From IMG/VR virus record IMGVR_UViG_2718217862_000001: 41,292 nucleotides of DNA; one strand, written 5' to 3'. A model generated the notes under the pieces. That model saw nothing but the letters and a program-made list of their open reading frames with translations. It was not told where the DNA came from and did no database searches. The position numbers and the translations under genes were made by a program. Below are positions 25,975 through 26,599 of this stretch, piece after piece. Position 1 is the first letter of the stretch. Each line of letters starts with the position of its first letter. The stretch comes from a virus. Its lineage: Duplodnaviria; Heunggongvirae; Uroviricota; Caudoviricetes.

Positions 25975-26234
25975 GGTTCTTTCCACCATCTGAAAAATAA
26001 TTCTTTAAAATACCAGACATGTAACACAGAAAAAACACAAAACCATACCTTAAATAGAAACCTGATCATCAAGCAGATATGCATGGATAAACTACAAGAC
26101 GAGATATAAACCACCCTGCATTTAAATAAACAATAAACAACATCAGAAAAATAATTCTGCTCTATGGTTTATATTCAAAAATATCATTTATACTTTTCAG
26201 AACATCACCAGCAAGGCATAAACAAGGAAGCTAA

Positions 26235-26570
26235 ATGAAGTGGATTGTAATTGATACAGTTATCCAGCCATCATGCGGAATATCTTTTTCAGTCATATGG
26301 AGTAAAGTAAAATTAATAATCTGGTATCAATCGGATGCTTTCTTACCTCCTGAAAGTATATTTACACTGACTCACACAGGTATCATGCTCAATAACAAAG
26401 TGCTACCTGTAACCATTTACAACGTAGTACCATTCAATAAAACATTCTGGAATTTAATCAAAAACAGCCAGGAATGCCCTACAAATACAGATAACGTATT
26501 GAATGAATGCTTTAATAACCGTTGCATTCTGCAAATATGTCCTTATGGACTAAAACAACAAAGTCCATAA
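26235..26570 (+). CDS. Hypothetical Cys-rich protein in an AT-rich island (moron candidate)
   Basis: 111 aa, RBS AAGGAAG 5 nt before ATG, six Cys, markedly AT-rich, opposite to late transcription. Confidence 0.4.
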
Positions 26571-26599
26571 GGAGTTTACTCACATCTGACAAAATCAAT

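Follow-up and report, generated by a model that had tools for sequence, protein, structure and literature searches.

An AT-rich cargo module between Q and the lysis genes of a lambdoid prophage very probably carries iraL, a gene for an RssB anti-adaptor

Introduction

What is encoded by a strongly AT-rich island between the antiterminator gene Q and the lysis genes of a tailed phage, and does it serve the phage or its host? We address this question for a 41,292-nt sequence (IMG/VR record IMGVR_UViG_2718217862_000001, Caudoviricetes), the whole of which is called the window below. The initial annotation, made from the sequence alone, had pointed to a Cys-rich ORF in this island, recognized no family for it, and noted that lambdoid phages carry cargo genes in the same position.

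The AT-rich island and its ORF

The composition of the segment 25990-26570 is as deviant as had been claimed. Its calculated GC content is 0.322, compared with 0.506 window-wide, and this is the minimum among all 581-bp intervals of the 41 kb (mean 0.506, sd 0.049), ~3.8 sd below the mean. The ORF itself has a GC content of 0.339. The segment comprises the following features:

25990-26234, plus strand: AT-rich upstream (regulatory) region of iraL, GC 0.298
26224-26230, plus strand: Shine-Dalgarno sequence AAGGAAG, read from the sequence
26235-26570, plus strand: coding sequence of iraL, RssB anti-adaptor, 111 aa, ATG start

The Shine-Dalgarno sequence is 4 nt away from the ATG, or 5-6 nt if the distance is measured from the AGGA core, in agreement with the near-consensus ribosome-binding site initially assigned to this ORF. 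The protein has five cysteines, C14, C81, C92, C97, and C102, rather than the six counted earlier; they make up 4.5% of the residues, still a Cys-rich composition. The minus strand carries Q, the genes for a phage-21-type holin, a YdfR-family protein (DUF1327), and lysozyme, and every structural gene; two of them define the slot:

27823-28644, minus strand: antiterminator Q, which sets the direction of late transcription (Pfam PF03589, 183 bits)
within ORF 25263-25583, minus strand: phage-21-type (S21-type) holin

Therefore, iraL, being on the plus strand, is oriented against late transcription, as had been noted.

Identity of the ORF

We are highly confident that the ORF is iraL, a prophage cargo gene that has already been named and characterized experimentally and that encodes an RssB anti-adaptor stabilizing RpoS. 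IraL was described as the second Escherichia member of its family, encoded in the potB prophage island of the uropathogenic strain CFT073 and 58.9% identical to IraM (Hryckowian et al., 2014; PMC4045071). The window protein coincides with CFT073 IraL in 109 of 111 residues (98.2%), the differences being V25I and I98T, and the genes are identical at 332 of 336 nt (98.8%). The nucleotide identity exceeds the threshold by which iraL was defined, at least 95% across the full coding region with no overlap with iraM (PMC4045071), and hence the window gene is iraL. The identity to K-12 iraM is 68.8% at the nucleotide level and ~60% at the protein level (67 of 111 alignment columns).

The assignment to the family rests on matches to NCBIfam and PDB. 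The NCBIfam model NF007393 (IraM) scores 162 bits with a cutoff of 121, residues 1-110 being aligned to profile positions 1-113/114, and PDB 8TWD, formed by IraM residues 1-78 and RssB, matches with an E-value of 9e-32. Pfam gave no match to the ORF, whether at E≤0.001 or at E≤10, the PmrD model PF11183 included; precomputed tables assign PF11183 to homologues of the ORF. A search with 701 bp around the ORF gave matches in 2221 of 5426 complete E. coli genomes, and the features at these matches are labeled "anti-adapter protein IraM"; for the window gene, this RefSeq name is a family-level label. Thus, the ORF for which no family had been recognized belongs to the IraM/IraL/RssC family by RefSeq, NCBIfam, and PMC4045071.

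One candidate that we rejected is an orthologue of the K-12-type iraM regulated by PhoPQ and Mg2+, as the upstream 200 nt cannot be aligned with those of K-12 iraM and the locus is not next to e14. A search for a PhoP box upstream of iraL and an alignment with the iraM promoter produced nothing alignable.

Since AT-rich DNA easily yields ORFs on both strands, and the corresponding PHROGs family, phrog_4407, is listed as "unknown function", one could also take the ORF for a chance frame in a non-coding spacer, such as a late-operon regulatory or terminator region. We consider this to be extremely improbable. In pairwise comparisons of three paralogues, the window gene, K-12 iraM, and the paralogue from Stx2c phages, dS is 1.3-2.0 and dN/dS is 0.10-0.17, and ratios that low at dS above 1 rule out a chance ORF. 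Moreover, the protein matches a curated family, the structure of a paralogue has been solved, and protein-level experiments have been published. The initial annotation had made the case for this gene dependent on homologues with a conserved reading frame and on a transcription or translation signal; the former turned out to be abundant, and a transcription start has been mapped in the 98.8%-identical CFT073 gene (PMC4045071).

The cargo module and its neighborhood

The iraL block is a discrete, self-contained AT-rich cargo ("moron") module of ~0.6 kb in the Q-to-lysis slot. It is flanked by the following features:

25786-25989, minus strand: DUF1737 ORF (Pfam PF08410), 67 aa, 5' remnant of a nanS-p-type sialate O-acetylesterase gene; left border
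26596-26784, minus strand: STnc100 (PasD-related) prophage sRNA (Rfam RF02076, 132.5 bits), convergent with iraL; right border
26605-26626, minus strand: GC-rich 9-bp hairpin, the intrinsic terminator of STnc100 with its T-run on the minus strand, 35 nt past the iraL stop codon

An O157:H7 prophage and an APEC prophage retain both flanks (the start of DUF1737/nanS-p and STnc100) and carry unrelated sequence of normal GC content instead of the block. This comparison with empty sites sets the module borders at ~25990 and ~26605, homology with the iraL-less prophages resuming at ~26606. Like other morons, iraL has its own transcription start (by homology) and a deviant GC content (0.32 vs. 0.51), is situated between genes of a phage operon, and is absent from homologous prophages. 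The suggestion that this slot holds cargo is borne out by the two empty sites and, additionally, by a paralogue that Stx2c phages carry directly downstream of stx2B. Of 5426 complete E. coli genomes, 1430 (~26%) have the module, and an identical iraL copy is found in four deposited Escherichia phage genomes. Enrichment of iraL in uropathogenic and Shigella isolates has been reported (PMC4045071).

At the left border, the DUF1737 ORF, the first of the late genes beyond STnc100 and the module, is a pseudogene according to RefSeq, and phrog_143, with its 634 profile positions, matches it over positions 1-58 only. The nanS-p-type esterase gene next to iraL is intact in many other prophages and is deleted both here and in CFT073.

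At the right border, no canonical plus-strand terminator was found after iraL, the hairpin at 26605-26626 having no U-tract on the plus strand. The iraL gene and STnc100 converge on this shared hairpin, which may also participate in ending the iraL transcript, as far as can be judged from the arrangement of these elements.

STnc100 forms an array in the Q-dependent late leader. Two full copies, 26596-26784 (132.5 bits) and 27060-27253 (138 bits), both on the minus strand, are ~466 bp apart, and a third, degenerate copy between them (26849-27024, minus strand) scores 30 bits, which is below the gathering score. Each copy ends in a minus-strand terminator hairpin. CFT073 apparently has one copy, and an APEC prophage has several. 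Between the array and a single prophage tRNA gene (27604-27679, minus strand) there is a DUF3927 ORF of 38 aa (27342-27458, minus strand), which matches phrog_1470 (TciB-like, cell-division inhibition or colicin resistance) with an E-value of 2e-13. The tRNA has the anticodon CAT and is called tRNA-Met by ARAGORN and tRNA-Ile by RefSeq (presumably lysidine-modified); the tRNAs at the corresponding position in CFT073 are Ile-Arg-Arg. Finally, in strain MRSN346595 (NZ_CP018109.1, 1251704-1253976), an otherwise identical iraL is split by ISApl1, which makes it a natural knockout allele.

Promoter and -35 alleles

According to 5' RACE, the CFT073 iraL mRNA begins with ACATCACCAGCAAGGCATAAACAAGGAA (PMC4045071), and this sequence is identical to window positions 26202-26229. 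The promoter elements are as follows:

26168-26173, plus strand: likely -35 hexamer TTTATA (TTTACA in CFT073), deduced from the spacing to the transcription start
26189-26194, plus strand: likely -10 hexamer TATACT, deduced in the same way, with a 15-bp spacer and its last base 8 nt upstream of the transcription start
26202, plus strand: transcription start of iraL, by homology with the CFT073 5' RACE end

The two hexamers were assigned from the mapped start and from the remark that iraL2 of strain JJ1886 has a -35 mutation (PMC4045071). A CFT073 fragment spanning positions -100 to +33 of iraL, placed at attTn7, restored RpoS stability in an iraL deletion strain (PMC4045071). Its counterpart in the window (26102-26234) is identical at 129 of 133 nt (97.0%). 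The four changes are at 26172, 26201, 26230, and 26232, one of them falling in the likely -35 hexamer; the -10 hexamer, the transcription start, and the Shine-Dalgarno sequence are the same as in CFT073. TTTATA matches the -35 consensus in four positions of six, compared with five of six for TTTACA, and the spacer is already short at 15 bp. Because of this spacer, the iraL promoter was not reported by a generic sigma-70 scan, which allowed for spacers of 16-18 bp only and found four sites with 3.6 expected by chance.

To count the alleles, we searched 5426 complete E. coli genomes, 1430 of them carriers, for exact matches to the 60- or 61-nt promoter core. The counts add up to more than 1430, as some genomes have two copies:

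-35 allele TTTACA followed by A: 792 genomes
-35 allele TTTACA followed by T (CFT073 type): 255 genomes
-35 allele TTTATA (window): 284 genomes
-35 allele TTTA-A, with a 1-bp deletion (e.g., JJ1887): 166 genomes

TTTACA with either following base is thus found in ~1047 of 1430 carrier genomes. The window has a common minority allele with a weaker consensus match, which probably lowers iraL expression. The identification of the C>T change in the window with the published iraL2 mutation was considered and dropped, as the JJ1887 copy has a 1-bp deletion instead; the name of isolate JJ1887 suggests closeness to JJ1886. The likely -35 hexamer has been altered independently at least twice, by C>T (284 of 1430 carriers) and by the 1-bp deletion (166 of 1430). 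These recurrent lesions might represent natural tuning, specifically down-tuning, of RpoS stabilization and levels, and could be of practical use for work on RssB anti-adaptors.

This raises the possibility that the window gene is iraL by descent, yet a weakly expressed or silent allele contributing little to RpoS in its host, due to the C>T change in the -35 hexamer and possibly to H-NS acting on AT-rich DNA. In favor of this, TTTATA replaces in the window the TTTACA of CFT073 and of most genomes; an independent 1-bp deletion in the same hexamer is found in JJ1887 and a further 165 genomes; the upstream GC content is 0.30; and the expression of -35-mutant iraL copies is given as not known in PMC4045071. 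On the other hand, the coding sequence is intact, with just two conservative substitutions relative to CFT073, TTTATA is common (284 genomes) without signs of decay, and the -10 hexamer, the start, and the Shine-Dalgarno sequence are unchanged. True inactivation looks different, as illustrated by the copy disrupted by ISApl1. Hence we regard a silent allele as rather unlikely, if a serious possibility, and favor a functional iraL with probably lowered expression. A literature search for iraL together with H-NS retrieved nothing specific. In CFT073, iraL mRNA increases by 1.6 log2 upon a shift from 23 to 37 °C and is also elevated in a fur mutant.

Interaction with RssB

The function of IraL is known from CFT073. 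In an iraL deletion mutant, RpoS is less abundant in log phase and its half-life drops by half, from ~5 to 2.5 min, complementation from the native promoter restores RpoS stability, IraL co-purifies with RssB, and in a two-hybrid assay it binds the N-terminal receiver domain of RssB only (PMC4045071). In the structure of the IraM complex, the barrel domain of IraM lies over both the alpha4-beta5-alpha5 face of the RssB receiver and its segmented helical linker, and sigma-S is thereby shut out (PMC10844676).

Residues 1-78 of the window protein form a PmrD-like antiparallel beta-barrel with an alpha-helix, and residues 79-111 a tail with four cysteines. We compared the residues contacting RssB with the list from PMC10844676, the reference being the complex of IraM (60% identity) rather than one of IraL. 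Cluster I, which contacts the receiver domain in IraM, is fully retained (I4, I6, W22, K26, and I42, 5/5 identical). In clusters II and III, whose contacts are with the C-terminal domain and the linker of RssB, 3/5 and 2/4 positions are identical, with the substitutions T13S and L75I in the former and H63N and I64V in the latter. An intact cluster I and substituted clusters II and III fit the two-hybrid result that IraL binds RssB's N-terminal domain only.

From the 98%-identical CFT073 protein, we predict that the window allele binds RssB and protects sigma-S from ClpXP. In a lysogen, iraL would be transcribed from its own sigma-70-type promoter, like the CFT073 gene, and independently of Q. 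IraL, as its CFT073 counterpart does, would bind RssB, a response-regulator-like adaptor, and with RssB blocked, the delivery of sigma-S (RpoS) to ClpXP would slow down, so that both the half-life and the level of RpoS would increase in exponential growth. By analogy with the crystal structure of IraM and RssB, the beta-barrel N-domain of IraL may occupy the alpha4-beta5-alpha5 face of the receiver, where sigma-S would otherwise bind, and contacts with the C-domain of RssB are likely weaker than those of IraM. After induction, as the anatomy of the locus suggests, Q-modified polymerase could read STnc100 and then continue antisense across iraL.

Could IraL mainly serve the phage, either by tuning the lysogen through RssB and RpoS (prophage maintenance or induction), or by acting on another response regulator, as PmrD does on PmrA? 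In lambdoid prophages, the gene is invariably located in the Q-to-lysis slot, in the case of Stx2c phages directly after stx2B, as could be expected in this case. However, RssB binding and RpoS stabilization by IraL have been demonstrated (PMC4045071), nothing points to another target, and the identity to PmrD is just 13%, the Pfam PmrD model giving no match. The opposite strand and the own promoter are also typical of morons that are expressed in lysogens and benefit the host, such as bor/iss in the window. We thus consider a primarily phage-serving role to be quite improbable, well below the possibility of a silent allele. As an RssB anti-adaptor acting in the host cell, IraL illustrates how a prophage can rewire the general stress response of its host, a cargo of 0.6 kb raising RpoS in growing cells.

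The C-terminal tail

The four cysteines of the tail, C81, C92, C97, and C102, are arranged as CP-x9-C-x4-C-x4-CPYG and are kept across the family down to ~21% identity. For crystallization, residues 79-107 of IraM had been cut off as less conserved, flexible according to AlphaFold, and protease-labile. In IraL and IraM, 16/29 tail residues are identical, compared with 51/78 in the N-domain; the four tail cysteines do not vary among 14 Escherichia paralogues.

When 1.8 billion representatives were searched exhaustively with a profile, 162 proteins were obtained at E≤0.001, of which 50 of full-length size (100-175 aa) were aligned together with the window protein (51 sequences). All four tail cysteines are present in 40 of the 51, mostly as CP(G)N-x7-C-x5-C-x4-CP(Y/F)G, and the other 11 look shortened or frameshifted. 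In a 41-sequence alignment reaching down to 21% identity, the sole invariant columns are C81, C92, C97, C102, and P103, whereas C14, an RssB contact in IraM, is variable, with threonine in most members. The genera of the named family members include Citrobacter, Salmonella, Enterobacter, Intestinirhabdus, Kosakonia, Dryocola, Pantoea, and Cronobacter. Among the weaker matches, long multi-repeat proteins align by short beta-strand stretches only and were treated as spurious.

AlphaFold2 assigned the tail pLDDT values below 50 with 10 sequences and of 56-69 with 41. A profile search of PDB gave no match to the tail. We tentatively suggest, giving it nearly as much weight as the opposite, that the IraL/IraM tail may be a conserved Cys4 mini-domain (CP-x9/10-C-x4/5-C-x4-CP[YF]G) that binds metal or senses redox state and determines how stable or how active the anti-adaptor is, rather than a disordered appendage. 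If so, it would link RpoS stabilization to zinc or redox state. The conservation of these cysteines looks under-described: the words "zinc" and "cysteine" are absent from the IraM structure paper, and a 2013 paper on anti-adaptors has no "zinc" and uses "cysteine" for RssB only. As a family-wide motif in the very part discarded by structural work, it could help research on RssB anti-adaptors.

Other features of the window

A second AT-rich cargo gene on the opposite strand, iss/bor (increased serum survival lipoprotein; 23528-23821, plus strand), has the lysis cassette on one side and the HNH/terminase genes on the other. It matches phrog_260 (Bor-like) with an E-value of 1e-58, and the local GC content is ~0.39-0.42. 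Further GC troughs, at 30661-31572 and 36871-37642, lie near two RNA genes of the early region, the sok antisense RNA of a hokD/sok toxin-antitoxin locus (30678-30853, minus strand, 112 bits) and the DicF sRNA (36737-36788, plus strand, 77 bits). The window begins inside an IS3-family element, which is represented by a 5'-truncated ALIL frameshift pseudoknot (1-72, 58.6 bits) and by an ORF of 295 aa on the plus strand ending at 888.

Comparison with known systems

The closest known system is IraL of CFT073 (c1429; Hryckowian et al., 2014, mBio, PMC4045071). It has the same length of 111 aa, the same five cysteines, and the same sequence at the transcription start. The gene order in the CFT073 potB prophage is also that of the window: Q, tRNA, DUF3927, STnc100, iraL on the opposite strand, DUF1737, S21-type holin, YdfR, and lysozyme. 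The window differs by V25I and I98T and by four promoter or leader substitutions, including TTTACA>TTTATA in the -35 hexamer. Around iraL, the prophages differ in a mosaic manner: that of the window combines a P27-type terminase with HK97-like late genes and has a single tRNA and two to three copies of STnc100, while in CFT073 the late genes are lambda-like and there are three tRNAs.

IraM of K-12 (YcgW/ElbA; 8TWD), induced by Mg2+ starvation through PhoPQ, belongs to the same family and has the same fold, the two proteins being ~60% identical across 107 aligned residues. It shares with the window protein all five cysteines and all five cluster-I contacts. IraL has four additional C-terminal residues, the substitutions in clusters II and III, and the reported binding to RssB's N-terminal domain only. 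The iraM gene adjoins e14 rather than occupying the Q-to-lysis slot, and its upstream region cannot be aligned with that of the window iraL; thus, the two genes are regulated differently.

The paralogue in Stx2c and Stx2a phages (phage 1717, ACI43140; phage 2851) has 107 aa and is 75% identical to the window protein; it is likewise oriented against the late genes in the Q-to-lysis region, and ~110 nt upstream of it are also homologous to the window. In phage 1717 (5115-5438 of the locus examined), it is situated between stx2cB and nanS-p, on the opposite strand. About 41 Stx2-converting phages carry this paralogue (74% nucleotide and 75% amino acid identity to the window iraL); it is hypothetical or unannotated in most phage records, and our literature search found no experimental characterization of it.

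With PmrD (PDB 4HN7, 2RQX), the similarity is in the fold only, the identity to the window protein being 13-19% with no PF11183 match. PmrD has no Cys4 tail, acts on PmrA instead of RssB, and is encoded by a chromosomal gene regulated by PhoP.
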